From: a virus
Reading direction: 5' to 3' (one strand)
Virus record (IMG/VR): IMGVR_UViG_3300037089_000424
Length of the DNA: 64,000 nucleotides
Below are positions 44,272-60,333 of the stretch, piece after piece (positions within the stretch are counted from its first letter, which is position 1; each line of letters opens with the position of its first letter). The position numbers were made by a program, and so were the translations under genes. Under the pieces are notes generated by a model. It saw only the letters and a list, made by a program, of their open reading frames with translations. It was not told the origin of the DNA and did no database searches.

Positions 44272-44309
44272 GGATTCCCTCCTCAAGTCTCGCGTTCGCG
44301 AGGCTCAAT

Positions 44310-44876
44310 TTAACTGATAGGCATCACGAACACATCGAATTCTCCAAGCTGATTTCCAGGCGCATTGGTTGACATGTGTTTGAACTCGAACGTCGCGTCC
44401 ATGATTGTCTCGCGTTGCTCTGGGAAGGGCAGACGCAGTTCCAAAGGAGGATACACCGAATATCCCGTCACAGCGATGTATCCTTGCTCAGGCGTGGGGT
44501 GCTCGAATCTGAAATTAGAGAACGGCATGTTCGAGCTTCCACCAAAGGTCTGCACATAGAGAGTTCCGCCGCCAGATGCAGAACCCTGAACAGTGACGGC
44601 TCCGTTTGTGAAGTTCCGGAAATAGAGGGCGAGGCTTGTCGCCTGGATTTCCAGCAAAGGAGTCACAACATTGCAAGTCTCTTCCAAAGTGAAACGACGG
44701 AGCAGGATCAAAGGATTACCACCCTTAACATCGTACGGACGCATTGTGTAGTTGAATGATGCGTCCCCTTTGACCTGGCCGAGATTAACCAATGGGTTCC
44801 CATAGAGTACAAGACCATTGCCGAGAAGGATATTTCTCTCGTCAATGAGTTGTAACAGTCCACTTGTTTGTGGCAT
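44310..44876 (-). CDS. major tail (tube) protein
   Basis: NLGQVKGDASFNY...TPLLEI...L gene order and size (188 aa). Confidence 0.8.
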   Translation of the reverse strand: MPQTSGLLQLIDERNILLGNGLVLYGNPLVNLGQVKGDASFNYTMRPYDVKGGNPLILLRRFTLEETCNVVTPLLEIQATSLALYFRNFTNGAVTVQGSASGGGTLYVQTFGGSSNMPFSNFRFEHPTPEQGYIAVTGYSVYPPLELRLPFPEQRETIMDATFEFKHMSTNAPGNQLGEFDVFVMPIS

Positions 44877-44889
44877 TGAATTCTCCTCC

Positions 44890-45372
44890 TTAGTACCAAC
44901 TCTGGCTGATTGCTTCCACTCTGAACGTCACGGGCAAGTGGTAAGTCTTGCTCGTTTCTTCAAAGACCGGGCCAGGATTCTCTATCTCGTAAGAACGCTG
45001 GATAGCCACACCGTCTCCAGACCAGTTCGTGTTCTGGAATCCAGCAAAGACATATTGATAGATAAGCCCAACCAATTTCCTTGCGTCCACAGGCTTGATC
45101 TTAGCACTGCCAACCCAGATATCAATTCGCAGACTGAGATGCCTATAGACGTTGACCATGTTGTCTGGAGAACCCTCCGAGTAAACACAAATCACAGGAA
45201 AAACCGGAGATGCACCTTGCTCTGGCAAAGTTCCCATCACCATATTCGGAACTGTCAACCCAGTGTAGGGATCCGGAATCTTCGCAAACATATTCTGGAT
45301 AGCAGCCGGCAACGAGTTGTAAACGTCCGTCCTAAGCACGTTCAGCGCCAATCTTGTCACTTTCTCACTCAT
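44890..45372 (-). CDS. tail terminator / completion protein
   Basis: FPVICVYSEG...LRIDIW...YHLPVTFRVE; position before the tube gene. Confidence 0.7.
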   Translation of the reverse strand: MSEKVTRLALNVLRTDVYNSLPAAIQNMFAKIPDPYTGLTVPNMVMGTLPEQGASPVFPVICVYSEGSPDNMVNVYRHLSLRIDIWVGSAKIKPVDARKLVGLIYQYVFAGFQNTNWSGDGVAIQRSYEIENPGPVFEETSKTYHLPVTFRVEAISQSWY

Positions 45373-45381
45373 TGCCCACTC

Positions 45382-45876
45382 CTACCTCTCAACAGTGTGA
45401 ATACGATGCTTGATGCCACGCAACAAGAGCACAAGAGGATTCCACATCACAGATCTGATCTGCTCATAAGCCTTCTCATGAAACCTTCTTGGCCGCATCA
45501 TTGTTGTTCCCCAAATCAAGTGCCGCATTTCCGGAGCATCGCTTACAGCATAGACTGTGAACCTTCTGGAAGTTGTCTCCTCTACAGGACTGAGTTTGAT
45601 ACTCTTCCGTAATCTACCTGATTGGATATGTACATCTCTGTCATCAGAATGGACCCTCTTCCCGCCGCCTTTTCTGGCATACGGATGGCCCAGACGCCTC
45701 AATTCTGCGAGCGTGTGATCGTCTAGGCTGATCACCGACTTCACCTGCTTGATGTAGTCCTTGCCAGTTGCATCCAGACCCTTTAGGATAGCAGCGCGAA
45801 CCAGATTTCCCACGCTGCCAGATCGGATCACGAGTTGGTAGCCAGCGCCTGTAACATCTCTGTCTTGAAGTGCCAT
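45382..45876 (-). CDS. HK97-gp10-like neck/tail completion protein
   Basis: VHIQSGRLRKSI...HLIWGTTMMRPRRF. Confidence 0.7.
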   Translation of the reverse strand: MALQDRDVTGAGYQLVIRSGSVGNLVRAAILKGLDATGKDYIKQVKSVISLDDHTLAELRRLGHPYARKGGGKRVHSDDRDVHIQSGRLRKSIKLSPVEETTSRRFTVYAVSDAPEMRHLIWGTTMMRPRRFHEKAYEQIRSVMWNPLVLLLRGIKHRIHTVER

Positions 45877-46364: not shown

Positions 46365-47060
46365 CTACCTCACTGGTATGTAAGTCGACAGTGGCCACCC
46401 TCTCGATGAGATTGCTGGGCGATACTGCCGGCCAAGCCCTTTGAAAAAATCATCTCTCGTAGCCAATCCAACTTTGTGAAGTCGCTCTGCAATGTCATTA
46501 TAGCGCTCTGCCATTGAGGATGGACTGAAAGTGTGATCTCCTGCCTCTGTGTCATATTTGGTTGCAAATCTGGTCCCGAGAGCTTCGGCAACATGATAGC
46601 CGCCAAGGTGCTCAATAGCACTGATCAGAGCATCTGGAATATCGGTAGGAATCGTTGCTGGCTTAGATGTCCCTGTGACACTGTCGAATGAGGTGTAATA
46701 TGCAGAGAAGCCACACTCCCGCGCAGCGCACATTAAGTGGCCATCCATCTCGATGTCATCCATCCAAACAAAACTGCATGTGGCAGAGAGCGAGTCCGTA
46801 TCCACAGGCGCTGTCTTGAACTGAATGATCCCTGTCTTTGCGTTCACAACAGTAAAGTTAGAGGGGTCGACGGGACTGTCATTTACAACTGGGATGATGG
46901 ATGCTGCGATCAGTCGCGGCTGCGGGATCTGGAAAATCGTGTTCACTCCATCGAGATTCCCCAAGAGCGGAGAATACGCGAAGAGGGTCTTTCCATCCAC
47001 AGTATCATCGATCAAGATCCTTCCGGAGGTGATCATATCCTGTTGGCCTATCTGAGACAT
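46365..47060 (-). CDS. head-tail adaptor protein with inserted beta domain
   Basis: RILIDD...SPSSMAERYNDIAERL; gene order. Confidence 0.6.
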   Translation of the reverse strand: MSQIGQQDMITSGRILIDDTVDGKTLFAYSPLLGNLDGVNTIFQIPQPRLIAASIIPVVNDSPVDPSNFTVVNAKTGIIQFKTAPVDTDSLSATCSFVWMDDIEMDGHLMCAARECGFSAYYTSFDSVTGTSKPATIPTDIPDALISAIEHLGGYHVAEALGTRFATKYDTEAGDHTFSPSSMAERYNDIAERLHKVGLATRDDFFKGLGRQYRPAISSRGWPLSTYIPVR

Positions 47061-47070
47061 CAGAGCCCTC

Positions 47071-47286
47071 CTATAGAGATGACACTACGATCGCGTAAGT
47101 CGAAGTCACCACGCCACCGATGGTCACATTCTGGCCAGTTGGATGAATTTTGAGCCGCAGACCCTGCCATTCAAGTGTCTGATCTCCAACACCTGTGCTA
47201 GTTGTAACAACTGGAGAAAATGTTTCATCTCCATTGTCATGAGCCAGAATCCGATAGCCTTGTATTTCGAATGATGAATCCATCAA
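47071..47286 (-). CDS. small virion-module protein
   Basis: GYRILAHDNGDETF...GLRLKIH; related to 47298..47483. Confidence 0.6.
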   Translation of the reverse strand: MMDSSFEIQGYRILAHDNGDETFSPVVTTSTGVGDQTLEWQGLRLKIHPTGQNVTIGGVVTSTYAIVVSSL

Positions 47287-47297
47287 TGCCCTCCTAT

Positions 47298-47483
47298 CTA
47301 AAAATCTCTCCCACCGGCTGCTAGCACAAAGTCATTGGTACTGCCCAGAGTCGTATCTGTGTTCACTGTGTTGACGTTCATAGCAATCCCTCCCAGAGTA
47401 AAGATGCCAAACAGAAAAGTTCCATCTCCATTGTCTATAGTTTTGAGACGAAGTCCTTCAGCTTCTATCGAGGAGTTAGACAT
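47298..47483 (-). CDS. small virion-module protein
   Basis: GLRLKTIDNGDGTF; ATG 47483 behind GGAGGA. Confidence 0.55.
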   Translation of the reverse strand: MSNSSIEAEGLRLKTIDNGDGTFLFGIFTLGGIAMNVNTVNTDTTLGSTNDFVLAAGGRDF

Positions 47484-47531
47484 CCTATCCTCCAGCACGC
47501 TTTGTTATTCGGACTATCGCAGCCAATGATT

Positions 47532-47855
47532 TCATTGACGCCTCTCCTCTAGACCTTTACAAAGCCTCATCTGCTCAAACAACAATTGGTTCTGATTGTC
47601 TATGATCTTCTCCAGCGACCTTGCCTGAACCCTTAGTGTTTCAGCTTGCGCCTCGAACAGAGGTTTCAGAGACCTGCTAATCCCATCTGCTATGGCATTT
47701 GTCAATCTGCTTTCCCAAAGTTCAACTTGCGTACTCATAGGACACTGCGCAGCAGTAGTCACACCATTTTTCCGGGCCTTTAGAAATGCGAACATCTGAG
47801 CTAGGGCGAGGAGCACGAGCGCGCCCCCAATCCCAAGTTGTCCAAAAGTATCCAT
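47532..47855 (-). CDS. membrane-anchored coiled-coil protein (holin-like)
   Basis: N-terminal TM GIGGALVLLALAQMFAFL followed by heptads. Confidence 0.55.
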   Translation of the reverse strand: MDTFGQLGIGGALVLLALAQMFAFLKARKNGVTTAAQCPMSTQVELWESRLTNAIADGISRSLKPLFEAQAETLRVQARSLEKIIDNQNQLLFEQMRLCKGLEERRQ

Positions 47856-47877
47856 TAGGCTTGCCCTCCATCTAGAG

Positions 47878-49086
47878 TTACCCTGCCAGAGCAGACCGTA
47901 TCTCCGCTGCGACTACTTCTGGTGCCAACTGATCCATACAAGGAGAATATTGGCCTTTTCCGTGGCACCCACTCACGTCGATGAAACATCCCACACTGCA
48001 AGATTTCTGCCCGTCCGGAAGCAGGCCAGTCACATAGGGAACACGCAGGCCACGAGCGTGCGGTTGGAAGTGAGCCAAAAATGGGAATGGCTCGTGTGGC
48101 CCATACAAAGAGATTGCTTTCTTCCCTTGTGACAAGCGAACATAGAGAAGCCCTGTGTCAGAAGAGCAAAATAGGTCGGATTCTATCGCTACTGCAGCAG
48201 AATATCTAAGCTTGAAGGCTCCAGAACAGTCAGTCACTTTGCTGCCAAGTTCGCCCCAAGCAGCTGGATCAAATCTGTGATCTAGAATGATCCAATGGTA
48301 AGGCTCATTTTCCAGGATCTTTATCACCTTGCGCCAATGCGGATAGTCTTTGTACACAGTAGACGTGTGTGGTACCAAGGCAATTGGCTTGAGTCCTGCA
48401 TTCCGGACTCCTTGCATGAGTTTTCTAGCGAAGTCTAACTCCTCTTGATGAGGATAGTAATAGACTGTTCTGTTAGGCATCGACTCTGGATCCAAATATG
48501 CGTGTTTACAATACAAGTCTAGCGCCACAAGACGATAGCGATTGATCACCGAATTGCTGGCCTGCTCCATGAACTCTTTCTCGTCGCGATTCAGTTCGCT
48601 GATAGGCTTGTCTGACAGCTTGATCAAGAACTCGTTGAAATATGGCTTCGTCCGCAAATGAATCTTGTAGTCGAAGCCTCCTTTCAGTGGCACGTCGTAA
48701 TCCAGCCAATACCACTCAATGAGTGGATCATACATCTCGAATAGCCTATCCACGTCGTTCCAATGCCAGAGATCGTCTATATCCGGATTCCCTTCGAGAA
48801 TATCGGGGTGATGGCAAACCACAGAGATTTTGACGGTCGGGAACTTCCTTCGTATTTCACGAAGAACTGGTGTCAGATACAACAAATCTCCGATTCCCCA
48901 TGTGTGCTTGACAATCAAGTGCTTGTCATTCAGATCCACATCACCTCTATAGGGTACACGCCTACGCAAGCGATTCTGATACTCGTCCCAATCATACACT
49001 TTCACTTTTTGGCCAAGCGTATTGGTAATGTATTCAGGCTTGGGCTGAGTGACAGCGAATGTGAGTGTCTCGTTTTCGGCCGGCAT
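47878..49086 (-). CDS. GT9 (heptosyltransferase-like) glycosyltransferase
   Basis: GIGDLLYLTPVLREIRRKFP...ILEGNPDID; SDLFCSSDTGLLY...AISLYGP. Confidence 0.88.
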   Translation of the reverse strand: MPAENETLTFAVTQPKPEYITNTLGQKVKVYDWDEYQNRLRRRVPYRGDVDLNDKHLIVKHTWGIGDLLYLTPVLREIRRKFPTVKISVVCHHPDILEGNPDIDDLWHWNDVDRLFEMYDPLIEWYWLDYDVPLKGGFDYKIHLRTKPYFNEFLIKLSDKPISELNRDEKEFMEQASNSVINRYRLVALDLYCKHAYLDPESMPNRTVYYYPHQEELDFARKLMQGVRNAGLKPIALVPHTSTVYKDYPHWRKVIKILENEPYHWIILDHRFDPAAWGELGSKVTDCSGAFKLRYSAAVAIESDLFCSSDTGLLYVRLSQGKKAISLYGPHEPFPFLAHFQPHARGLRVPYVTGLLPDGQKSCSVGCFIDVSGCHGKGQYSPCMDQLAPEVVAAEIRSALAG

Positions 49087-49107
49087 GAATTTCTCTCTCC
49101 TTTTCAG

Positions 49108-49791
49108 TTATGGGTGCCGCACGTTCACCTTCGGGTCAACCCAGAGTTTGTACCCATGCGACCGCATGCTGTCGCAGAAGCTGAGAACTTCCCGCTCGGG
49201 AGGCTCAAATTTACAAACTCTCGCCACATCGCCTCGCACTACGAAACAAGAGCCTGCGTAATCCATTGGATACATGCCATTTGGCGATGGTGTCTTGAAC
49301 ATTGGATGGAATGGCGGTGGGTCGCGAAATCCAATGCCACCAGAACTGTATGCCCATGTGTCGTAGAACATGTGTTCACGATTATCACACAAGCAGAGTG
49401 GAACCACAGCATCGACTTCTTGGAGTCTGTCCAAGAGCCGTATCATAGTCCCAGGTTCCCAAACCAGATCGCTTTCAACATAAATCAATGCTTCGTGAAG
49501 AGATGTGATCTGATCCAGAATACCACTATCTGCGTAGGACTTCTGTCTCTCTCGTTGTTCAATGCACGGACTCCCAGAACCAAATATGGGGCCACCATGC
49601 GCACGCTTCACAACTTGCCCAGGAAATGCTTCGTTCAGCAGATCCCATGTATTGTCAGTGGAATCTCCTTCGACTAAAGCAGCGTCAAAGGAATGCTGAG
49701 GAGCAGCCTGAACCAAGCTTTGGAACAAAGTGACATATCTCTTTACGTACCCTGCAGAGTTGCAGAACACAGATCCAACTGCTACTCGCAT
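49108..49791 (-). CDS. GT-A fold glycosyltransferase (GT2/Anp1-like)
   Basis: LVEGDSTDNTW, LIYVESDL, FYDTWAY, GSCFVV, VDPKVNVRH. Confidence 0.75.
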   Translation of the reverse strand: MRVAVGSVFCNSAGYVKRYVTLFQSLVQAAPQHSFDAALVEGDSTDNTWDLLNEAFPGQVVKRAHGGPIFGSGSPCIEQRERQKSYADSGILDQITSLHEALIYVESDLVWEPGTMIRLLDRLQEVDAVVPLCLCDNREHMFYDTWAYSSGGIGFRDPPPFHPMFKTPSPNGMYPMDYAGSCFVVRGDVARVCKFEPPEREVLSFCDSMRSHGYKLWVDPKVNVRHP

Positions 49792-49806
49792 TGTTATCCT
49801 CCTTTA

Positions 49807-50727
49807 TCATCTAGCACTCCGTAACTGCCAATCGTCGCACTGCAAACGTTGCAAGAGTTCGCGCGCCACTTCACTGTTTCCCAAATAACGAGGAGCATAC
49901 CCATGAGGAAAAGCTGAGGCCATATCCGTCCCCGAAATTTTGCAAGCAGATATGCGATAGCTCGACAATTCTGGATTCAAAACTTTGGTCCATGCTGACA
50001 AGGCAGAGAAATTTGCCAAGCAGTATTGACAACGGGACAATGTAACACAATCGCGGATCGCCTCGTAGGAGAAGATTAGATTCTGGGAAACGTCATGGTT
50101 CAGATATAATTGCGCCCCATCTTTGGAGCGAGCATGATAGTGCATAAGCACTTCCACACGACCATTAGCAAATTCCTTTAGACGATCCATGAATCGAGAT
50201 TCGTCAGAAGCAGCAAAGATACATTTGATGTCCGGGTGTCCCTTCAAGAAATCATCAAGAATGAGCAAAAATTCATCTACAGTAACTGGAGTTGATTCAC
50301 AATGTACACTAAATTGATCAGTTCCTCTATAATGTACACCGAGCGTACCAAGACCGAGATGATTTTGTTGGCAGAACTCATCCACACCATCCACAACAAC
50401 GGGTGCCAAACGGAAGTAAGACGTCCAATATTTGTTTGCTAGACGAAAATCACCACAGAAATGGCGGCCTGCACCGTCCTTGGGATTGAAACGCCAGTGT
50501 AATTCTTCAAGCGAAATGCGTCCTACAGGTTCCGACTCTGGCGCATAGACTGTCTGAAGAACACTAGGAAAGATGTTATAGTCTGGAGGTTCCCCGTATG
50601 ATCGTGATTTTATGTTCCAGACAGCCCTATTCCAACCCTGGCTGTCACAATAAGGCAGTATGTCCAGAATCCAAGAAAATATCTGACCGAACAGCCCAAA
50701 TCCCATGTAATCGCTTTCAATGAACAT
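49807..50727 (-). CDS. NodZ/GT23-like (fucosyltransferase-type GT-B) protein
   Basis: LGVHYRGTD, IFAASDE, DCVTLSRCQYCLANFSALS. Confidence 0.7.
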   Translation of the reverse strand: MFIESDYMGFGLFGQIFSWILDILPYCDSQGWNRAVWNIKSRSYGEPPDYNIFPSVLQTVYAPESEPVGRISLEELHWRFNPKDGAGRHFCGDFRLANKYWTSYFRLAPVVVDGVDEFCQQNHLGLGTLGVHYRGTDQFSVHCESTPVTVDEFLLILDDFLKGHPDIKCIFAASDESRFMDRLKEFANGRVEVLMHYHARSKDGAQLYLNHDVSQNLIFSYEAIRDCVTLSRCQYCLANFSALSAWTKVLNPELSSYRISACKISGTDMASAFPHGYAPRYLGNSEVARELLQRLQCDDWQLRSAR

Positions 50728-50742
50728 CGGGTCCTCCTCAAA

Positions 50743-51402
50743 TCACTTCACAAAAATCCCCACTCCATTATAAACGTGCAATGGAGCGTAGTGGTATCCA
50801 TATGTTTCGGCGAATCTGTCAGCAGCTTGCTTGATCTGACTGCCGAGATCAATGTCATCCAGAAATATCACTTGAGATCCCACCGTATAGCTCCGTATCA
50901 AATCATTCAGACAACCCTCTTCGCTGTGGTCCCCATCGACGATCGTCATTATAGATTTCCCAGCATATTGATTAGAGATAGAATGGCCATGTTCAGCGAA
51001 GAAATCTTGGCTTTTCATGCCAAAGAAACGGAAGATGTTGGGATACCATTCGTTCAACAAGGCGATTCCTAGAGGTCCATTAACGTAACCTTGCGGGACA
51101 GGGTCAACACTCATAAATAATGGCGAAACAGCTTGAGGACGATGTGCGTCAATGTAGGCTAAAAAGGGCTTGTCAGGATTGTGACACTGATCTTCAAACT
51201 GACCAAACCCATCGGCGAGGGCTTCGAGAACGAAAAGCGCCGACTTTCCCCACAAATGTCCGATTTGAATAGTCAAATCGGGTTTGTAAAACTTGACCAA
51301 GGCGTACAAAAATGAAGCCACCTCGTCCACCATCCAGCCACAATTTGTTGAGGCTCCAGTGACTTCCCGTAGTTTTTGGACGCGTTCTGCAAGTCGGATC
51401 AT
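50743..51402 (-). CDS. class I SAM methyltransferase (Methyltransf_24-like)
   Basis: IQIGHLWGKSA, IVDGDHSEEGCLNDL, IFLDD. Confidence 0.8.
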   Translation of the reverse strand: MIRLAERVQKLREVTGASTNCGWMVDEVASFLYALVKFYKPDLTIQIGHLWGKSALFVLEALADGFGQFEDQCHNPDKPFLAYIDAHRPQAVSPLFMSVDPVPQGYVNGPLGIALLNEWYPNIFRFFGMKSQDFFAEHGHSISNQYAGKSIMTIVDGDHSEEGCLNDLIRSYTVGSQVIFLDDIDLGSQIKQAADRFAETYGYHYAPLHVYNGVGIFVK

Positions 51403-51442
51403 GTTATCGCCTCATCAACAATGTTTTCATAGATTCGCCTTC

Positions 51443-52780
51443 TTAATCACGACATATTGTACGAAATAAGGTCGCGAGTTCACGGTGGGCTTTCAGCAAT
51501 TCCTTCTGGCTAATTGTCGAGAGCTCTAGCGACAGTTCTAACTCATCATCATCGAGAAAGAACTCCCACATATTTTCAAAGTGTAGTTTCGCTTCCTTCA
51601 ACTTCACACCAAAGTGTTCAGGATGATTCCAGACCTCACTACCAGGTAAAGGCTGAAACATATGAACGGCTACACTGTTAGGTCTCACGCGCAGAACCCA
51701 TTCACGCATCTCATCGATGGATTGAAGCGTCTCTCCAGGAAAGCCGATGATCAGGAAAGCATGGGCAGCCATGCCACAGTCCTGCGCCTGCTTGATGGCA
51801 TACTCGTTATCTTGAGGAGTCGTCCGCTTGGTCATCATTCGTAAGACAGACTCCGAAGCATGCTCGACACCGAACTGCAATTCACGGCAGCCCTTTTCCC
51901 GAAAGTGATCGAACAGTTCCTTAGTGCAGAGGTTAGGATTAGCTCTAACTGTAGCACGCCACAGGATTCCGTACTCTGCAGCCAGATCGGCCACCCGCTT
52001 AGATCTTTCCTTCTTCATATTGAAGGTGTCGTCATTGAAACGTATTGCTGTCACTCCTACAGAGGCTAAGACTTTGAATTGCTCCTCAACTTGTTCAAGT
52101 GTATGATCGCGGATTACAGTTCTAGCATCAGCACAAAAGGCGCAATCGTAAGGACACCCTCTAGAGCTCATCAGAAACGCAGTTTTTCTTCCTGTTACAT
52201 TGCCATCATGCCTCAGAGTTAGTTGAGGCAGCCGGCCATCCAACATATCGAAAGCCGGCAAAGGCATTTTGGTAACATCTGGCAAAGTTGGAATAAGAAT
52301 TGTACTCATAGGAATCATTCTTTCTGCTCCTACGTGCCAGACGCCAGGAATTCCATCTGGCCCCCCAACTATAAATCTCGGAAGTGTCTCCTCGCACTCG
52401 CCAATCATCAGATAGTCAAAGCCTTCAAAATACTTGGGCTGTTTATACTGCCCATAAGGACCGTTCATGATATAGGTAGCATGAGAGCCACCAAGAATCT
52501 TCACACGGGCTGGCCAAGCTTTCGCCATTTCCGTTGCCCATTGAATCTGTGGCGTCGTCGAAGAAACACCAAGGAAGTCACACTGTGGCATATTTCCAGG
52601 ATGAACGCACATCCTCTTGTTCACGCTGTCCCACGAAGTGACTTCATGCGCGAACATCAATTTGACTTCGTGTCCCACCTTACGCAGTATCGCAGCAAGG
52701 TAAATGATTCCAAGATTGAAATATGTTCTCGGGTCGTTCAAGAACCATGCTGGACTGTCAATGAGCACAACTTTAGCCAT
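51443..52780 (-). CDS. cobalamin-binding radical SAM protein (class B methyltransferase-like)
   Basis: LGIIYLAAIL, LGVSSTT, ILGGSHAT, GECEE, SRGCPYDCAFC, DDTF, FIIGFPGET-like motif. Confidence 0.92.
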   Translation of the reverse strand: MAKVVLIDSPAWFLNDPRTYFNLGIIYLAAILRKVGHEVKLMFAHEVTSWDSVNKRMCVHPGNMPQCDFLGVSSTTPQIQWATEMAKAWPARVKILGGSHATYIMNGPYGQYKQPKYFEGFDYLMIGECEETLPRFIVGGPDGIPGVWHVGAERMIPMSTILIPTLPDVTKMPLPAFDMLDGRLPQLTLRHDGNVTGRKTAFLMSSRGCPYDCAFCADARTVIRDHTLEQVEEQFKVLASVGVTAIRFNDDTFNMKKERSKRVADLAAEYGILWRATVRANPNLCTKELFDHFREKGCRELQFGVEHASESVLRMMTKRTTPQDNEYAIKQAQDCGMAAHAFLIIGFPGETLQSIDEMREWVLRVRPNSVAVHMFQPLPGSEVWNHPEHFGVKLKEAKLHFENMWEFFLDDDELELSLELSTISQKELLKAHRELATLFRTICRD

Positions 52781-52795
52781 CTCAACCTCTACCTT

Positions 52796-53530
52796 TTATT
52801 CTCCAAAATTCTCAAAGTCCAAAGCGTGGGCAAGAATCTTGGTTTTCTCCAAGTTCCGGATCGGATTGGTAACATAGAAGGATTCGGCCCAATTGAGTTG
52901 CCCTTCACTTTTGATGTCTGTTAACAAACCAGACACGCCACCAACACTGGTATCCGAGAATCGGTCAAATGTATGGCCGAGTTTAGCCGAGTAACGATTC
53001 ATGTCTTGAAAGTCCCAGAACTGAAAACCACGGCTCCGCAAGAAAGCATCCACGTCCCCAAAGAGTGCCTGACCTTCATAGAAGGGATTGAACTCCGTTT
53101 CAACTTCGACCATCAAGACCGATTTCAAGGTTTCTTCAGCACCCTTAAGAACTTCTAATTCTGTACCCTGAGTGTCAATTTTCAAGAGGTCCGCCCCTTG
53201 TGGAAAGTATTCTCGAAAGGAATCGAGGGTGCGGATTTCCACACCTTCAACCTTCCCGACCTCTTGAAAAAGCTGATCGATCAGATGCGCATCGTGGCAA
53301 GGCCGCAAGAAGGAGCTGCAGTCTATGCCAGCAGTCTGGTAAAAGGGCGCGCACCCAGATTTTGCTCCCAGGCCACAAGGCAGATACAAGAACTGAGGGT
53401 AGATACTCTGCAGACGATCGCACTCAGCCTTATCTACATCCCACCCAATAACACGAAGATTGGGAAGTCTAAACCAGCGCGGATAAGGTTGATCTCGACA
53501 GCCTACATCCAAAATTATGAACTCATTCAC
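52796..53530 (-). CDS. FkbM-family methyltransferase
   Basis: ILDVGCR, LLKIDTQGTELEVLKGA, YEGQALFGDVDAFLRSRGF. Confidence 0.9.
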   Translation of the reverse strand: MNEFIILDVGCRDQPYPRWFRLPNLRVIGWDVDKAECDRLQSIYPQFLYLPCGLGAKSGCAPFYQTAGIDCSSFLRPCHDAHLIDQLFQEVGKVEGVEIRTLDSFREYFPQGADLLKIDTQGTELEVLKGAEETLKSVLMVEVETEFNPFYEGQALFGDVDAFLRSRGFQFWDFQDMNRYSAKLGHTFDRFSDTSVGGVSGLLTDIKSEGQLNWAESFYVTNPIRNLEKTKILAHALDFENFGE

Positions 53531-54213
53531 ATTTCCCCCACAAAATCAAGAGAGGTATCACATTCCTGATCGGTATTGTGCATACCACGCACCCCAATCT
53601 GCTGGATATAACTCTTCTGCGTTACCCAACGGTCCCCTATGCGCTCTCTACTGTGTAGAATATCAAGCGAGATCCCAACAGGGAACTTGCGATAGTCGAA
53701 ATTCCAGTCTTTCCATTCCTCCCATGTAATCGCTCCAGGTCCGCTGATTGAGGTGACTAACATGTCAACACCCTCAGACTGCAACGTCCTGTGATGCTTC
53801 GTGTTTCCCGAACGATAAACGGACCAGCTTTTAGCATCTGGATGACGGAGGATCAAAGCTCGAAGTTCAGAGAGCCATACTGGATTATAGATGAAGTCGT
53901 CAGCCAAGAAGCACCCATGTGTGATTTCAGGGAACATTCGGAACAAAGAATCAAAACCATATGTCACAGCGGCATCAATATTTGCGGCGTCATACGGCTG
54001 TTGAATGATGACACGGCCAAACCCTGGAAAATCCTCTTGGCTCTCTAAACCTTCAGCATCGAAATGTTCAGACTTAGCAACAAAAAGTAGGATGGGCATA
54101 TGGTCAATCGCCTGTGTCTTTCGCAATGAGGCAAAGGAACGCTTTGCCCATGCTACCCGCTCAGGGTTGTAGAGATATATAGGAAGAACGAATCCGAACT
54201 TGATGTCACTCAT
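53527..54213 (-). CDS. GT-A (GT2-like) glycosyltransferase
   Basis: FVLPIY, CFLADDFIYNPVWL, SYIQQIG; ATG 54213. Confidence 0.7.
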   Translation of the reverse strand: MSDIKFGFVLPIYLYNPERVAWAKRSFASLRKTQAIDHMPILLFVAKSEHFDAEGLESQEDFPGFGRVIIQQPYDAANIDAAVTYGFDSLFRMFPEITHGCFLADDFIYNPVWLSELRALILRHPDAKSWSVYRSGNTKHHRTLQSEGVDMLVTSISGPGAITWEEWKDWNFDYRKFPVGISLDILHSRERIGDRWVTQKSYIQQIGVRGMHNTDQECDTSLDFVGEM

Positions 54214-55343
54214 GATACACCTATCATTTCGCATGCACGCACCCAAAGTGGCATGCTCAATGCAGTGTTCCAGAGAAAATCGCGAGAGCCGGAAAGCCCA
54301 GCAAAGCCCGGAAACTGATCCGAATGCTCTCTAAGTAGCTCACTCAGAGACAGGCATGCTTCTGCATAATTCGCACCTGAAAGTTTCTGCTCAGTCAGCC
54401 AAGGCAAAAATTCTTCGAGCAATCTGATGCCGGTCATTTCATCAGATGCATCTCGCAGATAATCATGATTGTTCCTATGGTGGCACGCCATAGGAGTGCC
54501 AAATCTCACAGTATGCCCGAGGTGCTTGGCACAGACCTGGACAAAATAGCCTTGAAAAATGTCTCCGAGTCTATTCTGAATCACCCCACCCATACGGACG
54601 AACCAATAGGCAGGAATGGCATCTCTTCGGACAGCTGTGTTCTGAGAATTGACAGGAGACCAAGTGCCTGGCGCAAGTACACGACTCCCAACTAACCCTT
54701 CTGCCAAGGCTGGGGCAACACACCAAGTCATGCCATCCAGATCAGGCGATTCGTGCCAGAGGCCAGCATTAATACTCACTGTCACCATCCTCTTGTCCTC
54801 AGAAACAAGGCTACTACGCAACCGATGACGTGCAAAGTACGGAAAGCCTCTAGCATAAAAATTACTCTTCTCTTCTGGCACACCAAATAAGTGACAGGCA
54901 TTGTACCACCCCGTACTTAAGCTAACCTGAGATTCCTCGTGTTCTCCAGCACAGACGATTTCGTGCTCGCCGAAAAAGTCGTATTCAGGAATGGCATAGT
55001 TATCGTCATCGATGGAAATAAGAAAGTCAACACCCTTCTCAAGCGCCATCAAGTAACCGATGTTCCTTCGATTATCAGAATGCAGCGGCACAAAGTGGCC
55101 CAGATCCAAAACAGCTAGAAAATCAGTCTGCTCCTCCAAATCTGGGCAGAGAGTGGCCATGCCTTCAGCAGTCCACTTTCTACATACCGCAAAGATTTCT
55201 TTCGGGGTGCCTTCATCAGGAATGACTATAACAATCACATCGTCAAGACGGCCATATTTCTGGAAGTTCTCGAAGTAACTGCGTAGAACCTCGGGAACGT
55301 GGATTGTCGTCAAGACTATTGCGGCTCTAGGTATTTGGCCCAT
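54210..55343 (-). CDS. RGP/UDP-arabinopyranose-mutase- or STELLO-like GT-A protein
   Basis: AIVLTTIHVP, RRNIGYLMA, ISIDDDNY, RGFPY, PDLDG, INSQN-like, RLGDIF; ATG 55343 behind AGGAG. Confidence 0.75.
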   Translation of the reverse strand: MGQIPRAAIVLTTIHVPEVLRSYFENFQKYGRLDDVIVIVIPDEGTPKEIFAVCRKWTAEGMATLCPDLEEQTDFLAVLDLGHFVPLHSDNRRNIGYLMALEKGVDFLISIDDDNYAIPEYDFFGEHEIVCAGEHEESQVSLSTGWYNACHLFGVPEEKSNFYARGFPYFARHRLRSSLVSEDKRMVTVSINAGLWHESPDLDGMTWCVAPALAEGLVGSRVLAPGTWSPVNSQNTAVRRDAIPAYWFVRMGGVIQNRLGDIFQGYFVQVCAKHLGHTVRFGTPMACHHRNNHDYLRDASDEMTGIRLLEEFLPWLTEQKLSGANYAEACLSLSELLREHSDQFPGFAGLSGSRDFLWNTALSMPLWVRACEMIGVS

Positions 55344-55396
55344 ACGATATCTCCTGATGTGGCAACAGTCAGAAACGGACAAATAGCTAACGTGTA

Positions 55397-56098
55397 CTAG
55401 CCAGGATATTCGACAGCGTACAGACGCTTGCCATCGCCAACGAACGGATTCCTGAATGGCACACCCTTTTCCAGAGCTTTACGGTATGCGCGTACAGCGC
55501 TGTTCTGCTTCCTGAGTGTCTTGATTTCCTTCCTACTCAGAGCCTTGGCCTGTTCAAACTCTCGCGTCTGCTGATCCACGGATGTAGTGTAACCACCTCC
55601 GACTTTCAAATCAATCGCAGTCACCTTTGCTTTGCGCACAATGCCTGCGTTGTCTATGTAGGTTGACTCTTGATATGTGACCGGCCGAGGATGGAGGTTC
55701 TCATAAGCCTTGTACTCTGCCAAAGCAGCATCATACAGCTTTCTAATCTTATCTGCATCTGTTGGAAAATCTACAGGGATGCAGAGATATCCGCATCCGT
55801 GAGAGAAGAGCACCTTCCGTCTTTCTTTGGCATCTTTGCTCCGGGGGTCGCCAATATCTACAGCGACCTTTCGATCAAAATAATAGCGAGAACAAGATGC
55901 GTCCTTGCCAAAAGCATTCTGGATGAAATCTGACTTCCAATTAGAGATATAACCTCCTCCAATTGCAGCAGTCATCGCATCGTTCGCTACTCCAAATTCA
56001 AACTTCGTTACAGGTCCGGTCTTTTCTGGCCCTTCATGTACAGAGCCATCAGCCGCAACTGTCACCTTCTGTTCAACTTTCTGCATCTCAACTTCCAT
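55397..56098 (-). CDS. hypothetical protein, possibly a degenerate DUF559/Vsr-like fold
   Basis: YYFDRKVAVDIGD...ERRKVLFSHGCGYLCIP loosely parallels DUF559; strong GAGGAGG RBS. Confidence 0.55.
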   Translation of the reverse strand: MEVEMQKVEQKVTVAADGSVHEGPEKTGPVTKFEFGVANDAMTAAIGGGYISNWKSDFIQNAFGKDASCSRYYFDRKVAVDIGDPRSKDAKERRKVLFSHGCGYLCIPVDFPTDADKIRKLYDAALAEYKAYENLHPRPVTYQESTYIDNAGIVRKAKVTAIDLKVGGGYTTSVDQQTREFEQAKALSRKEIKTLRKQNSAVRAYRKALEKGVPFRNPFVGDGKRLYAVEYPG

Positions 56099-56111
56099 TT
56101 TCTCCTCCTCT

Positions 56112-56140
56112 ATGTGAAGAGGGACGCCGAAGCGTCCCTC
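56112..56140 (-). terminator. UUCG-capped hairpin after the major capsid gene
   Basis: GAGGGACGC-TTCG-GCGTCCCTC followed by TTCAC. Confidence 0.65.
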
Positions 56141-56190
56141 ATCTGAGAATATATGATTCGGGTCCGCTTTACAGATCCGTGTTCGATTGT

Positions 56191-57267
56191 CTAAGTCGTG
56201 CTCTCAGTCCCATCATCGCCCATGAACAAGAATCGGCTATCGATCATACCGACTTCGAATCGCGAGCGAGACTTGAACCGATACGACTCCATCGTAAACG
56301 AATCACCAGACGCAGGATGCTCCTGGATGATTTCCAATGGGTCACGCCTCTGGAAGACCAGGCAACGCTTGGGATCGCCCAAGATCCATACCCTTGCGGA
56401 TAGGAACCGAGAGATCAAGAGCCTGTACAGGCCTTGGAGAGGATTGACGGTCATCACGTATCCCGTATCTCCAGCAGTCGCAGTCGGAACTGACGGCTGC
56501 AATGTGGAGTTCAGGATCTTGGCCGCAACGAACTTGTCTGTCGGCGACGCCAACAGAGTATTCGGAGTGACCAAGAACTTGTTCCCGAGGGGATCGACGA
56601 TGCTCATCAAAGCAATGTCCGCTGCTTCCAACGTAGGCTGGCTCAAGCGAGCATACGTTGTCGGACGATTGCCTTTTGGTGTGATGCTATAGGTCCCATT
56701 TCCATTTCCTGTGTAAGCATCACTGTAGGTGATATCCGGATCGACCTGGACGCCCTGTTGGGTGAAGCCTGCGCCAATGATCTTGCCCATGACGTAGATT
56801 TCTTCCATGATCTTGAAGTTCTCACCCATCTGTGAAGCTCGGTTCTTGATCTGGCCCGTTTGATCGTCATCGAACAGTTCGCGCTCAAAGGACTCAATCA
56901 TACCGAACTTCACGTTGGTCAGAACTCGGTCCAAGCCAACGATTGGATTATCCTGGAACTTCTGCCCACGATCCGTCCTTCTCGGAAGATTTGGACGGTA
57001 CAGCGGAGCATAGTATTCCTGGAAGCGCCGAGATGTTACCTCGGTTACCAGGTCAGGATATACAACTGGAACCGTCTGGTAGCTGTTGATTGCATAGGAT
57101 TGGATCCCTGCCCTCAACAGCTGGCCAAACGCAGATTCAGCATTTGCTTCCCGAAGCCTCTGGTAGTTATTGTAAGCACTCTCCCGGAGGCGACGGAATG
57201 AAAGCTGAGGGCTGTTCCAGTTGATCTTACTAGCTACAACTTCAACTGGTGAAAGTGGTCGCTTCAT
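56191..57267 (-). CDS. major capsid protein (HK97 fold, Mu gpT-like)
   Basis: FGQLLRAGI, KFGMIESFERELFDDDQTGQI, PNTLLASP, PLQG, FKSRSRFEVG; follows protease and decoration genes. Confidence 0.9.
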   Translation of the reverse strand: MKRPLSPVEVVASKINWNSPQLSFRRLRESAYNNYQRLREANAESAFGQLLRAGIQSYAINSYQTVPVVYPDLVTEVTSRRFQEYYAPLYRPNLPRRTDRGQKFQDNPIVGLDRVLTNVKFGMIESFERELFDDDQTGQIKNRASQMGENFKIMEEIYVMGKIIGAGFTQQGVQVDPDITYSDAYTGNGNGTYSITPKGNRPTTYARLSQPTLEAADIALMSIVDPLGNKFLVTPNTLLASPTDKFVAAKILNSTLQPSVPTATAGDTGYVMTVNPLQGLYRLLISRFLSARVWILGDPKRCLVFQRRDPLEIIQEHPASGDSFTMESYRFKSRSRFEVGMIDSRFLFMGDDGTESTT

Positions 57268-57280
57268 TTGCTCTCCTCCG

Positions 57281-57781
57281 TTAGAATGATGTTAGACCTG
57301 CGAATTGCGGCTTCAGATAGAACAACATCTTCGTGACGCCAGCAGTTGCGGCCTTTCCGGTCGTAGTGCCAGTCGCGACAGCGAAGAAATTCTCGGGCGC
57401 ACAGACGGCGACCACATTAGCAGAGGATGCACCTGTCTTTTGGACCTGCTGAGGGTCCGCAGCGAAGGTGACTGAATCCCCTGGATAATATGTCGCGCTG
57501 TCTGCCACAGTGAACTCGACCAATCCACGAGTTACCACGTTCATGCGCGGCTCCTGCAGATTCTGGTTGAGTGAAGTGATCGGCTGCGTGTCAAGACCAA
57601 CCCCAAGGAATGCAGCAGCGGCTACTGTGCTTTCAGAGTCGCTAGCTACCACGGGGATGGCCACGTGATTCGAAGAGTCCCACTTCAGCATATCACCGCT
57701 GTTGTAGGTCTTCGTGAAATCGATCGGAACCCCACTGACACGCAGTTGTTCGACTTTCACAACATTGAACGGAATGGACAT
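57281..57781 (-). CDS. capsid decoration/cement protein
   Basis: FLGVGLD...VVTRGLVEF...YYPGDSVT (DUF2190-like); lies between protease and MCP. Confidence 0.7.
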   Translation of the reverse strand: MSIPFNVVKVEQLRVSGVPIDFTKTYNSGDMLKWDSSNHVAIPVVASDSESTVAAAAFLGVGLDTQPITSLNQNLQEPRMNVVTRGLVEFTVADSATYYPGDSVTFAADPQQVQKTGASSANVVAVCAPENFFAVATGTTTGKAATAGVTKMLFYLKPQFAGLTSF

Positions 57782-57819
57782 ATTGTCAAGTCCTCCTAGA
57801 AAGTGTCAAACTGCGTTAC

Positions 57820-60333
57820 TTAGTCCTTCATGGGGATTCCGTCGGCTGCAAATCCCTCAACGAGGCCAGAGTTTCCGCCACCCGATTCCATACGGAATGC
57901 ACCGGTGCCCCTGCCTCCATTCCCTTCAACAGATTCACGGAGAGTCGCAACGGTGCTGCGCCGAGCGGATTCGAGCAGCCTTGCAGTCGTTTCGATCTCA
58001 ATGATCTGGTCGTCACGGTTCAGGCCATACAACTTGCGCTGCATGACACGTGCCATGCCGACATCAAGGAGCTCGTTTCTGACAGCTTCGCGAAGCAGCT
58101 TGAACGCTGACCTCTTGGAGTTGTTATATGCGAGGATCCCTGACAGACGCTCATTTTGCCGACGAGCAGCCTTCAGCGATTCGCGAAGGCGAGTAATGCC
58201 GTCTGCCAATTTCCCGATTCGACGATTGGCTTCGTGCGCCACTCGCCGAGCCAGCCGATTCTTGCGGAATTTGCTGGTCTTCAACTTGTAGCTCTTACCA
58301 GAGGCGCCAGTCGATGAGTCTTTGTTTGGAGTCTTGAAGTCCTCATCATATTCACCAATGGCATGAGATGGAAGGGTTGCCTTTCCGGACTTGCCAAAGT
58401 TGCAGGCTTCCTTACTCTTCATACGACGAGCGCGAGACTCAGCGATTGGCCCTTTCCCACCCATTGTGGAGGGGATGGATCCCATTTCGCCACCTTCGTC
58501 TTCCTCGCCTTCATCTTCAAGTCCCTCTTCACCTTCGTCTTCCTCGCCCTCATCTTCGAGAGCTTCCCCGAGGTCGTCGTCGACGCCTTCGCCACCAGCG
58601 CCCATCGCGTCGGCACCGTCACCGTCGTCTCCGTCCCCGTCCCCGTCATCCATCACAGGAGCTTGAGAGCCGTCGCCGTCGTCTTCGAGACCTTCATCAG
58701 CTTCCTCGGTCTCGTCCTCTTCGGCTTCGTCCTCTTCAGCTTCATCTTCCTCAGCTTCCTTCGTGGCGGATGCCTTTACTTTCTTACTTGAGTCCCCGAA
58801 GTCATCGAAGCTCCCCAGATCTTCCCCCTCATCGTCTTCAACGTCCGACTCGGTGGCCAATCTGGTATCTTCCGGCGAAGGCTCGGGCAGATTTTCGTTG
58901 TCAGGTCCCGTTCCTGCCGCAGCCTTGAGCACCTTCTTCTTGCGAAAGCGCAGCTTGGCGCCAGCTTCTTTTGATCCACGGGATGTTTTCAGGCGTGGAC
59001 TTTTCATGGAATCACCACCTCCAGATGGATTGATGTTGGAATATTGCTCTTCGTTCGTTTGCCCTGGTCCTTTCCCGGAGATCGATGAGAAGCCATAGAG
59101 CACTTTAGAAGCTTCGTAGGCTGCTTGCTTGACCTCATCAGGGTTGTCAGAATTATAAGCAGCAACCAAAGAATCTGCGACTTCCTTCGCTTTCTTGGGC
59201 GGTACACCAGACTCTTTGAGATGACTACTCATAACACTCTTACTTACTGATTTCGTCGCACGATTAGAACTTCCCCTTTTGCTCTCGAGCATTTTGTCGA
59301 ATTTCCCCCGAGCCGCTGGCTCGGTAACAACATCAGCAGAGTCTACTCGCTGGAACTCTTCGACATAATTGACAACCTCACCTCCCATGTTAGCAGGGCG
59401 CGTCTTTCCGACAGCATTGATGCTGATGCCAAACAGACCCTTGGCGGATTCGTCCGTCATAATAGTGTCAATCATATCTGTAAGCCACTTGGCTGTTGGA
59501 AAGAAATGGAGCTTGCCACGGAGTCGAGCTTTTCCGTCTCCACCAGTGTCAACAAAACAGTCACTGTACCAGCCAACCAGGTCTTTCATGCTACGTTCAG
59601 GAAGAGTCTTCTCCTGGATCGCGTCAGGATGATCAGAATATGATTTCGAACCATTGAACAACTGAGGAGCTTTCTTGAGAGCCTCGCCACTGTAATAGTT
59701 CTTGTCCTTACTGTTGCCAAGACCCTCGCCTATAATGGTAACAAGGTACACACGACCTTTCGTCTTATGGCCATTTTTCTTTTGAGCATCTTCATGGCCC
59801 TGTTCATGGAAGGAACCATAGCTGGACTCACGGATATTAGATTCCTTGGCACGAGTAGCCTTCTTTCTTTGCTCCGGAGACAATTTGTGCCACTGCAAAT
59901 GGGTGTAATAGGCACCGGATTCTGGATCATACATCTTAGTGTATTTGCCTCTATCGTATGTTGGTCCAGGTGTCCCCTTACGTTGTCCCCACTTCATCCC
60001 CTTCACACCTGCTTCAGCAGCTTTCCTAGATGCGAAGAGAGGCATCTGGCGCTTGACGTCTCGAGATGGAATGATATTTTGAGTAGGCACAGATATCTCC
60101 TCGCCAACATCGAGTTTCACTCTAGTCTTACCATCATCTCGCCCAACAACTTTTCCAATCAGGTGTCTAGACTTTCCAGATGCCGGATCTACACCAGGAA
60201 CGCCAACCACAGACCCTTTCTTCAACTTCTTATGGTGCCACCGTTGTCCTTTAACACCATATTCTTGGAATGGGGCCTTCTTAATACCGGCTCTCTGTAA
60301 TTGGCCCACCGCAGATGAAGAGTTACCCATCAA
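57820..60333 (-). CDS. prohead protease (T4 gp21-like) fused to acidic scaffold and N-terminal extra modules
   Basis: SYSDHP (His), GISINAVG (Ser), DSADVVTEPAARG; long D/E tract and C-terminal coiled coil. Confidence 0.85.
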   Translation of the reverse strand: MMGNSSSAVGQLQRAGIKKAPFQEYGVKGQRWHHKKLKKGSVVGVPGVDPASGKSRHLIGKVVGRDDGKTRVKLDVGEEISVPTQNIIPSRDVKRQMPLFASRKAAEAGVKGMKWGQRKGTPGPTYDRGKYTKMYDPESGAYYTHLQWHKLSPEQRKKATRAKESNIRESSYGSFHEQGHEDAQKKNGHKTKGRVYLVTIIGEGLGNSKDKNYYSGEALKKAPQLFNGSKSYSDHPDAIQEKTLPERSMKDLVGWYSDCFVDTGGDGKARLRGKLHFFPTAKWLTDMIDTIMTDESAKGLFGISINAVGKTRPANMGGEVVNYVEEFQRVDSADVVTEPAARGKFDKMLESKRGSSNRATKSVSKSVMSSHLKESGVPPKKAKEVADSLVAAYNSDNPDEVKQAAYEASKVLYGFSSISGKGPGQTNEEQYSNINPSGGGDSMKSPRLKTSRGSKEAGAKLRFRKKKVLKAAAGTGPDNENLPEPSPEDTRLATESDVEDDEGEDLGSFDDFGDSSKKVKASATKEAEEDEAEEDEAEEDETEEADEGLEDDGDGSQAPVMDDGDGDGDDGDGADAMGAGGEGVDDDLGEALEDEGEEDEGEEGLEDEGEEDEGGEMGSIPSTMGGKGPIAESRARRMKSKEACNFGKSGKATLPSHAIGEYDEDFKTPNKDSSTGASGKSYKLKTSKFRKNRLARRVAHEANRRIGKLADGITRLRESLKAARRQNERLSGILAYNNSKRSAFKLLREAVRNELLDVGMARVMQRKLYGLNRDDQIIEIETTARLLESARRSTVATLRESVEGNGGRGTGAFRMESGGGNSGLVEGFAADGIPMKD

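Follow-up and report, generated by a model that had tools for sequence, protein, structure and literature searches.

An eight-gene glycan island in a phage structural block

Why would a bacteriophage carry a set of sugar-building and sugar-methylating enzymes among the genes for its head, neck and tail, and what would such enzymes decorate? The question is raised by a 64,000-nucleotide (nt) stretch of viral DNA (IMG/VR record IMGVR_UViG_3300037089_000424; the window, below, means this whole stretch), in which positions 47878-55343 are filled by eight successive open reading frames (ORFs) on the minus strand, with intergenic gaps of -4 to 40 nt and a Shine-Dalgarno-like purine run ahead of most of them. 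An initial annotation had reported a co-oriented, tight eight-gene cluster between the capsid and neck genes, and the ORF layout agrees with this description. The products, here named P0001 to P0008, comprise a predicted GT75 mutase acting on nucleoside diphosphate (NDP) sugars, putative glycosyltransferases of three fold types, two predicted S-adenosylmethionine (SAM) methyltransferases and a radical SAM enzyme, and we consider it very likely that the island is a working cassette for building and methylating a glycan.

The upstream boundary of the island is the gene for the major capsid protein (56191-57267, minus strand; phrog_371 major head protein, E 1.9e-10), on whose homologues the Pfam family PF25209 Phage_capsid_4 is recorded, and a gene for a conserved 233-aa protein (55397-56098, minus strand) lies at the junction between the two. 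All assigned genes from about 31 kb through 64 kb of the window are on the minus strand, and the GC content of the island (0.46-0.48) is near that of its flanks. Scans for promoter and terminator consensus sequences gave no more hits than in shuffled sequence, with no convincing site within the island. None of the eight island proteins contains a predicted membrane segment (highest Kyte-Doolittle 19-residue mean 1.22), and the gene set is without a flippase, a polymerase, a chain-length regulator or a polyprenyl-phosphate priming transferase, as would suit a cytoplasmic machinery that works independently of Wzx/Wzy.

A predicted GDP-furanose-forming mutase

The product of P0001 (54210-55343; ATG at 55343 after GGAG, in an ORF open from a TTG at 55382) was found to match the solved structure of MtdL (PDB 7xpr) with an E-value of 6.7e-87 over 337 aligned residues, and the Pfam family RGP with 48.3 bits (cut-off 23.8). 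MtdL and Hyg20, which belong to antibiotic biosynthesis, turn GDP-L-galactopyranose or GDP-L-fucopyranose into the furanose forms (PMC9937993). The protein had initially been called RGP/STELLO-like; the RGP family match holds, while a role as a transferase gives way, on the strength of the MtdL match, to that of a GT75 mutase, which would make a donor sugar (GDP-furanose) and transfer none. When aligned to MtdL (numbering as in PMC9937993), P0001 retains DDD109-111, R159, D195, S228/Q229, R257, D260, H287/R289/H292 and S86/D87, a set that includes the DxD motif, the Mn-binding His287, the catalytic Arg159 and Asp87/Asp195/Asp260/Gln229/Arg257, and the same catalytic and sugar-binding residues are invariant across 21 homologues. 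At the positions associated with GDP selectivity, Ser86 is kept and the equivalents of Thr13 and Ile15 are conserved in the 21-sequence alignment; the position of Asn42 is Gly in P0001 and Lys in most bacterial homologues.

By these sequence comparisons, P0001 is a predicted MtdL/Hyg20-like GT75 NDP-sugar mutase with all catalytic residues kept, probably specific for GDP-L-fucose or GDP-L-galactose, and the glycan probably contains a ring-contracted (furanose) fucose. A furanose sugar is thus a prediction that follows from the identity of the mutase, which was absent from the initial annotation. P0001 shares the DxD motif, the Mn-binding His, Arg159, the sugar-binding Asp/Gln/Arg residues, Thr13 and Ser86 with MtdL and Hyg20 but differs from them in being phage-encoded, in the replacement of Asn42 by Gly and in its long branch (1.38 changes per column) in the GT75 tree, and its product would go into a glycan, where theirs goes into antibiotics. 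In this tree P0001 falls outside the actinomycete clade and joins, as a weak sister (support 83/67), a clade composed mainly of Acidobacteriota, a placement that names neither donor nor host. A pattern scan of IMG/VR returned no relative of P0001, and no link of GT75 to a phage structural context was found among the papers searched.

Putative glycosyltransferases of the island

The second gene encodes P0002, which begins at Met12 (hence 53527-54213) and whose start overlaps the P0001 stop by 4 nt. Neither P0002 nor P0006 gave a Pfam match or a PDB sequence match above chance level; the seventh protein, P0007 (49108-49791), matched Pfam GT2 under the cut-off (E 0.0047) and gave chance-level rows only in the PDB sequence search. 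The predicted structures were more informative. The ESM Atlas model of P0002 reached a TM-score of 0.82 to a cluster consisting of 95% Glycos_transf_2 proteins, and that of P0007 (predicted TM-score 0.90) reached 0.88 to GT2/Anp1/CAP59 clusters with 82-100% viral members. Together with acidic motifs of the GT-A DxD type (ADD in P0002, ESD in P0007), the models assign a GT-A fold to both proteins. Because its start overlaps the mutase stop, and because a homologue adjoins GT75 in a bacterial genome (see below), we take P0002 as the candidate furanosyltransferase partner of the mutase; homologues with 35-37% identity were also found in two other phage-like sugar clusters.

For P0006 (49807-50727), the ESM Atlas model gave TM-scores of 0.66-0.73 to FUT8_N_cat/NodZ clusters, and a 60%-identical homologue on a short contig (L092) matched FUT8_N_cat below the cut-off (E 6.5e-4). 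The protein contains an H-x-R-x-x-D stretch, HYRGTD, which may correspond to the motif of the FUT8/NodZ/O-FucT family. The modelled fold makes P0006 a candidate GDP-fucose-dependent transferase.

The last gene of the island encodes P0008 (47878-49086), which matched Pfam Glyco_transf_9 above its cut-off (35.2 bits against 22, E 1.1e-8). Its AlphaFold2 (AF2) model, with a predicted local distance difference test (pLDDT) score of 84, was compared to solved structures, giving VIA-align Z-scores of 25.0 for 3tov, 23.2 for WaaF, 21.2 for TibC (283 residues) and 20.7 for WaaC, with other GT-B enzymes at 13 or below. The N-lobe G-D and C-lobe D-S/T-G motifs align with those of GT9 proteins, and the protein carries an N-terminal extension of about 50 residues as well as an insert at about 130-185. 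On the basis of the Pfam match and the model, P0008 is placed in family GT9, with a GT-B fold closest to GT9 structures. NCBIfam heptosyltransferase equivalogs scored 17-28 bits on P0008, so far under their cut-offs (170-467) that it is no orthologue of WaaC, WaaF or WaaQ, and although it has the same GT-B fold as WaaC, WaaF and 3TOV (Z 20.7-25.0), its island lacks a membrane-associated lipopolysaccharide (LPS) context. Homologues were numerous (54 at 38-63% identity), many of them on contigs of 92-108 kb, and all contigs examined were phage-like.

Close to the C-terminus of P0008, four cysteines (C363, C367, C374 and C383; Cys-x3-Cys-x6-Cys-x8-Cys) are invariant in 56 sequences. A four-Cys iron finger (Cys339, 342, 358 and 370) is known from TibC, a GT9-related enzyme that glycosylates a secreted bacterial protein (PMC4358343). 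TibC and AAH, autotransporter heptosyltransferases of the BAHT family, perform protein glycosylation in the cytoplasm and hold their four-Cys metal finger late in the C-lobe; the family is further marked by an N-terminal beta-barrel and a dodecameric assembly. The four Cys of P0008 have a different spacing, and a sequence search with a limit of E 1 did not find TibC. As TibC was also structurally no closer than WaaF, BAHT membership of P0008 was not adopted; its cluster resembles the TibC finger without implying membership.

Methyltransferases and a radical SAM enzyme

Three further proteins could tailor the sugars. P0003 (52796-53530) is an FkbM-family SAM methyltransferase, matching Pfam FkbM/Methyltransf_21 (PF05050; 73.8 bits against 22.7, E 2.4e-20) and TIGR01444 (41.7 bits against a cut-off of 37.7) as well as the methyltransferase family phrog_8156. 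P0005 (50743-51402) is a putative class I SAM methyltransferase of Methyltransf_24/CmcI-like type, with Pfam scores below the cut-off (Methyltransf_24 E 0.012, 16.9 bits against 26.3; RMNT_CmcI E 0.21). A bacterial homologue with 43% identity comes close to the Methyltransf_24 cut-off (25.9 bits against 26.3, E 1.9e-5) and has a weak RMNT_CmcI match, and BLASTP ties P0005 to Methyltransf_24 proteins within the islands of related phages; judged by these homologues, P0005 is probably a sugar O-methyltransferase.

P0004 (51443-52780) matched Pfam Radical_SAM (74.8 bits against 29.5, E 1.2e-20), with CPYDCAFC as its CxxxCxxC motif, and has an N-terminal domain like those that bind B12 (PF02310; 25.2 bits against a cut-off of 32.1, E 1.6e-5), a family among the recorded Pfam hits of P0004 and most of its homologues. 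It falls in no named methylase subfamily (PhpK, HpnR, GenK-like and others), as its best NCBIfam match, PhpK, scored 117.9 bits against a cut-off of 600 and others were also far below theirs. The best PDB match was AprD4 (E 2e-12), which has a similar B12 domain and is named a radical SAM diol-dehydratase by NCBIfam NF033070. The enzyme class thus points to C-methylation and the nearest solved protein to deoxygenation, so that C-methylation, which the initial annotation had included in its proposed coat, is one possibility among others for P0004.

Taken together, the FkbM, GT9 and radical SAM labels given initially each stand above the curated Pfam cut-off, whereas those for the two GT-A enzymes, the NodZ-like enzyme, the Methyltransf_24 protein and the B12 domain are weak by sequence and are backed by predicted structures or homologues.

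The company that these enzymes keep among characterised proteins also brings up a product other than a phage coat, namely a free or lipid-linked methylated glycoconjugate, or a glycan on proteins outside the virion, for example a pilus, flagellin or receptor of the host, with the position in the structural block being incidental. The closest characterised mutases, MtdL and Hyg20, serve antibiotic biosynthesis (PMC9937993), AprD4 tailors an aminoglycoside, and the GT9-related TibC acts on a secreted bacterial protein (PMC4358343). We nevertheless regard such a product as very improbable, as the island comes without genes for aglycone building, export or resistance, and eleven relatives retain an island in the same structural slot.

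Homologous sugar loci in bacteria and phage-like contigs

To which kind of glycan do such genes belong elsewhere? A GT75 alignment scan covered 185,579 species genomes, and its 80 best loci plus one further bacterial contig gave a set of 81. The best 80 were mostly from Acidobacteriota of peat and soil, the remainder coming from Verrucomicrobiota, Planctomycetota and others. Four window genes (P0002, P0003, P0004 and P0005) recur near GT75 in bacterial genomes: in a Terriglobia metagenome-assembled genome (MAG) the gene immediately before GT75 encodes a P0002 homologue (45% identity), two MAGs have P0005 homologues with 42-43% identity adjoining GT75 and a GT2 gene, FkbM (P0003) homologues are found no farther than 10 kb from GT75 at 5 of the 81 loci, and in a Dehalococcoidales MAG a B12 radical SAM homologue of P0004 immediately precedes GT75. 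The Terriglobia locus (L016:3321-15937), the one bacterial locus annotated, encodes a Wzz-like protein, Gmd, a MatE-like protein (weak), an Fcl-like epimerase, the P0002 homologue, GT75, GT2, a second Gmd and another GT2, where both Gmd proteins are GDP-mannose 4,6-dehydratases. This is the gene set expected of a predicted route from GDP-mannose through GDP-L-fucose and GDP-L-fucofuranose to a surface polysaccharide, and from such gene neighbourhoods the island appears to encode a coherent sugar pathway.

The same neighbourhoods can be read in favour of a different target, remodelling of the host envelope, in which the enzymes would act late on the LPS core or, on the inner side of the membrane, on undecaprenyl-linked exopolysaccharide or O-antigen intermediates and rely on the flippase and polymerase of the host, for example to stop progeny or competitors from adsorbing to infected cells and debris. 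In the Terriglobia MAG, Wzz, Gmd and GT2 genes accompany the P0002 and mutase homologues, bacterial GT75 genes also have homologues of the FkbM, CmcI-like and radical SAM proteins in their vicinity, and the island is anchored by a GT9 enzyme, a family whose characterised members are mainly LPS heptosyltransferases (WaaF, Z 23.2; WaaC, Z 20.7). Several observations make this reading unlikely in our view. None of the island genes codes for a membrane protein, a flippase, a polymerase or a priming transferase, and the island sits in the capsid-to-tail block of a phage of about 100 kb with its own replication genes, unlike the seroconverting cassettes of lysogeny modules. A change made late in a lytic cycle would moreover have little time to reach the outer surface, and the GT9-like family (54 members) was, in the cases examined, confined to phage-like contigs.

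The family of the radical SAM enzyme (461 members at E 1e-20 or better) has homologues on other phage-like contigs too, where those with 45-49% identity to P0004 lie in NDP-sugar clusters. The short contig L092 joins genes for CmcI-like, radical SAM (81% identity) and FUT8-like (60% identity) proteins. Two longer contigs (L093 and L094; 71 and 58 kb) have clusters encoding a nucleotidyltransferase, several epimerase/dehydratases, a Methyltransf_13/23/14 protein, FkbM, Methyltransf_23 and P0002 homologues; the Methyltransf_13/23/14 architecture is known from NDP-hexose C-methyltransferases. These clusters lie among small genes, near InPase (in L094 also QueC) and away from recognisable structural genes.

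Such a setting raises the question of nucleic-acid hypermodification, in which the glycan would be assembled, ahead of packaging, on modified bases in the DNA of the phage. Phage glycosyltransferases decorate DNA with diverse glycans (Pyle et al. 2024, as cited in PMC12619734), and the phage-like sugar clusters holding P0004 and P0002 homologues are found near QueC/InPase rather than near structural genes. The island itself, though, encodes no base-activating enzyme (a kinase, hydroxymethylase or similar), its head-to-tail position is atypical of DNA-modification genes, and we know of no GT9, FUT8/NodZ-like or GT75 enzyme that acts on DNA, all of which make this explanation very improbable.

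A conserved slot with exchanged contents

A search of IMG/VR with the capsid protein found five relatives at 74-80% identity, and the island was compared across 11 related contigs with a readable island region, ten of them with DNA for tblastn. Synteny in related phages had been put forward initially as a check, and an island was found in the same slot in all 11. The gene order is capsid, homologue of the 233-aa protein, an island of about 2-12 genes, the GT9-like gene where reached, a small gene, and the neck and tail genes; in one relative (L004) the island runs off the contig end. The flanking structural genes are kept in all ten relatives with DNA at 38-80% identity (capsid 73-80%). The contents of the slot follow a different pattern: for seven of the window's island genes tblastn detected no homologue in any of these ten relatives, and the GT9-like gene alone is common. 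What the relatives encode instead includes Methyltransf_23, 24, 11/12 and 25, NAD-dependent epimerase/dehydratase, GT17, and SPASM or B12 radical SAM proteins. In the relative whose GT9-like protein is closest (63% identity), the island is shorter and holds genes for Methyltransf_24, for a B12 radical SAM protein of 450 aa, for a 258-aa protein and for a weak GT2 match; from these similar gene classes part of the window set may be common within a sub-clade.

With the same slot, different enzyme sets and only the GT9-like gene retained, the locus behaves like a variable surface-glycan locus. Compared in this way, the island varies throughout a phage clade while the GT9-like gene serves as its anchor, a pattern that the initial annotation had missed. 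That all relatives keep an island in the structural slot argues for a virion-linked role, and that each fills this slot with a different enzyme set points to diversifying selection on the particle surface.

The window stretch, which comes from a divergent tailed phage, was seen in peat metagenomes only, with 50-100% of sampled words present in 12 peat runs. Since it recurs in these runs, a chimeric assembly, or a host LPS island lying between assembly breakpoints as had been considered at the outset, is ruled out; the conserved flanks in ten of ten relatives, the shared island slot and the GC content agree with this. No cultured relative was detected by megablast of 47000-57300 or by tblastn with the capsid and GT9-like proteins (50,697 phage records).

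Other features of the relatives' islands were noted during the comparison. Genes for GIY-YIG/NUMOD3 homing endonucleases lie inside two of them, near the GT9-like gene (L004:19050-19763 and L007:7917-8630), and such an endonuclease may help to exchange island segments. A paralogue family of about 300 aa, with 12 members (L001-L010) and no Pfam hit, makes up much of the relatives' islands, with two or three copies in each. Its G-I-G-D and S-F-x-S-G motifs recall GT9, a relationship that profile comparison did not support (probability 0.4% to the GT9-like family and 0.1% to P0006), and a profile search of the PDB found nothing for the family. Among the neck and tail genes of four relatives (L006, L008, L009 and L010) there are genes for Peptidase_M15_3, a Tlde1 domain, and a GH108 hydrolase with a PG-binding domain; no equivalent cell-wall hydrolase was detected in the 44-47 kb region of the window.

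Proposed pathway and candidate acceptor

What, then, would the cassette decorate? The reading we prefer is that of a phage-encoded, cytoplasmic cassette that puts a methylated oligosaccharide on the phage's own structural proteins, and our judgement on it is evenly balanced. In this pathway the host would supply GDP-L-fucose (or GDP-L-galactose), other nucleotide sugars, SAM and cobalamin, and the mutase would convert the GDP-pyranose to the GDP-furanose, a step for which homology is strong and the catalytic residues are kept. P0002, adjacent to the mutase in the phage as in bacteria, would transfer the furanose, and the FUT8/NodZ-fold, second GT-A and GT9-fold enzymes would add more sugars, one of them presumably acting on the protein acceptor. 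The FkbM and CmcI-like methyltransferases would O-methylate the glycan, and the B12-domain radical SAM enzyme would alter an unactivated sugar carbon.

A candidate acceptor is found at the end of the capsid protein. Its C-terminus reads ...GDDGTESTT in the window, compared with ...GDDG[T/S][V/I] in nine relatives, and the additional Glu-Ser-Thr-Thr tail (56194-56205, minus strand) gives a weak hint, from sequence, of a glycan attachment site; a capsid end rich in hydroxyl groups and found in no other phage compared thus coincides with an island that is likewise unique and rich in transferases. In mycobacteriophages, glycans are attached at the C-termini of capsid and tail-tube subunits by the phages' own transferases (PMC12619734, PMC12363180); the putative tail-tube protein of the window is encoded at 44310-44876. 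Ser/Thr-rich tail and decoration proteins had been named initially as possible acceptors. One Ser/Thr-rich protein was considered and set aside. This 202-aa protein (43678-44286, minus strand), encoded upstream of the tape measure gene (40330-43425, minus strand), has 17 Ser/Thr in the 30 residues of its C-terminal tail, the strongest such tract, which recurs in two relatives. Its gene overlaps a second ORF (43418-43930) in the manner of a tail-chaperone frameshift pair, and by position the protein is probably a tail assembly chaperone.

Expression was considered using two peat metatranscriptome runs, in which the capsid gene is partly present. The transcript contigs of the better run cover the prohead protease fusion (57820-60333, minus strand), a small pre-capsid gene, the capsid gene, the gene for the 233-aa protein and three tail-side genes. 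A GC-rich hairpin with a 9-bp stem and a UUCG loop was found 50 nt past the capsid stop (56119-56140, minus strand), with no U-run following; when the surrounding 116 nt were compared with 200 shuffles, 199 of the shuffled sequences folded less well (z -2.4).

A number of points weigh against placing the glycan on the virion. The hints of a virion acceptor are limited to genomic position, the soluble nature of the enzymes and the capsid ESTT tail, and this tail amounts to four residues of a single genome. For most characterised GT9 enzymes the acceptor is the LPS inner core, and since homologues of several island genes occur in bacterial cell-surface polysaccharide loci, the same enzymes could edit a host glycan. 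Both the phage and its host are uncultured. Metatranscriptome contigs (at least 99% identity) lie on 55861-58946 and 44259-45819 and none on the island, where a small run and contig-level data mean that absence from the contigs cannot prove the absence of an island transcript. The hairpin after the capsid gene could attenuate read-through into the island; it could instead stabilise the capsid transcript. The contig pattern fits island enzymes being made at a far lower level than the structural proteins, and the metatranscriptome neither supports nor refutes late co-expression of the island.

In its fullest form, our proposal is that a clade of peat phages of about 100 kb carries a rapidly exchanged, O-antigen-like locus in the structural block, that a phage-specific GT9-family enzyme with a Cys4 finger anchors it and glycosylates virion proteins directly, and that the window version would produce a methylated L-fucofuranose or L-galactofuranose glycan on the capsid C-terminus. 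As a whole this is put forward tentatively and is rather doubtful at present.

Comparison with known virion glycosylation

Virion glycosylation has, to our knowledge, been demonstrated among phages only for a few mycobacteriophages. In Che8, Corndog and Myrna the phages' own soluble glycosyltransferases modify capsid and tail-tube subunits in the cytoplasm (Freeman et al. 2023, as described in PMC12619734 and PMC12363180). The initial annotation had proposed a phage-borne cassette for glycan synthesis and methylation that is richer than this precedent, and the gene assignments bear this out: the eight predicted enzymes have a GT9-fold anchor, and a nucleotide-sugar mutase, two methyltransferases and a radical SAM enzyme are among them. 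The mycobacteriophage glycans are located at subunit C-termini, and it is at the C-terminus that the window capsid has its unique Ser/Thr tail. The host is here probably a Gram-negative bacterium from peat and not a member of the Actinobacteria. Chlorovirus and mimivirus also encode sets of cytoplasmic enzymes that build unusual methylated glycans onto their structural proteins, but these are giant viruses of eukaryotes with unrelated enzyme sets, while the island of the window is borne by a virus of bacteria.

Relative to known phage self-glycosylation, the new elements are the furanose-forming GT75 mutase, the B12-domain radical SAM enzyme, the FUT8/NodZ-fold enzyme and the GT9-fold anchor, as well as the setting in peat with a probably Gram-negative host and the O-antigen-like variability of the slot across the clade. 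If the island does coat the particle, self-glycosylation would extend to environmental phages of probable Gram-negative hosts and to a far richer chemistry of furanose formation, O-methylation and radical SAM tailoring. If the proposal holds in its fullest form, a furanose sugar and sugar tailoring by a B12 radical SAM enzyme would each be on record for a virus particle for the first time. Diversifying selection on the particle surface would in turn lead one to ask which selective forces in peat act on phage coats. For rare GDP-furanose chemistry, the GT75 mutase together with the neighbouring P0002 would be a compact source that is open to test.

Neighbouring genes

The 233-aa protein at the junction of capsid gene and island has a homologue in all ten relatives with DNA (38-53% identity), and its PFRNPF motif is invariant. 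Its AF2 model (pLDDT 75) gave weak matches to restriction-endonuclease-like folds (PD-(D/E)xK, Vsr-like; Z 6.3 or lower, TM-score below 0.5), too weak for such a function to be assigned. At the other end, directly after the GT9-like gene, a 107-aa protein (47532-47855, minus strand) has a strongly hydrophobic N-terminal segment (Kyte-Doolittle 2.18) and could, judged by its sequence, be holin-like or a membrane protein; in several relatives this position is taken by a gene of about 103-108 aa that has no detectable similarity to it. In the head module, two small adjacent genes (60722-61114 and 60375-60725, both minus strand) have no homologue among the ten relatives and are thus phage-specific, as is the island. 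The product of the latter has a weak match to a virion structural PHROG, and that of the former consists of 29% Ser/Thr, carries a He_PIG Ig domain (E 1.7e-10) and begins with what resembles a signal peptide.

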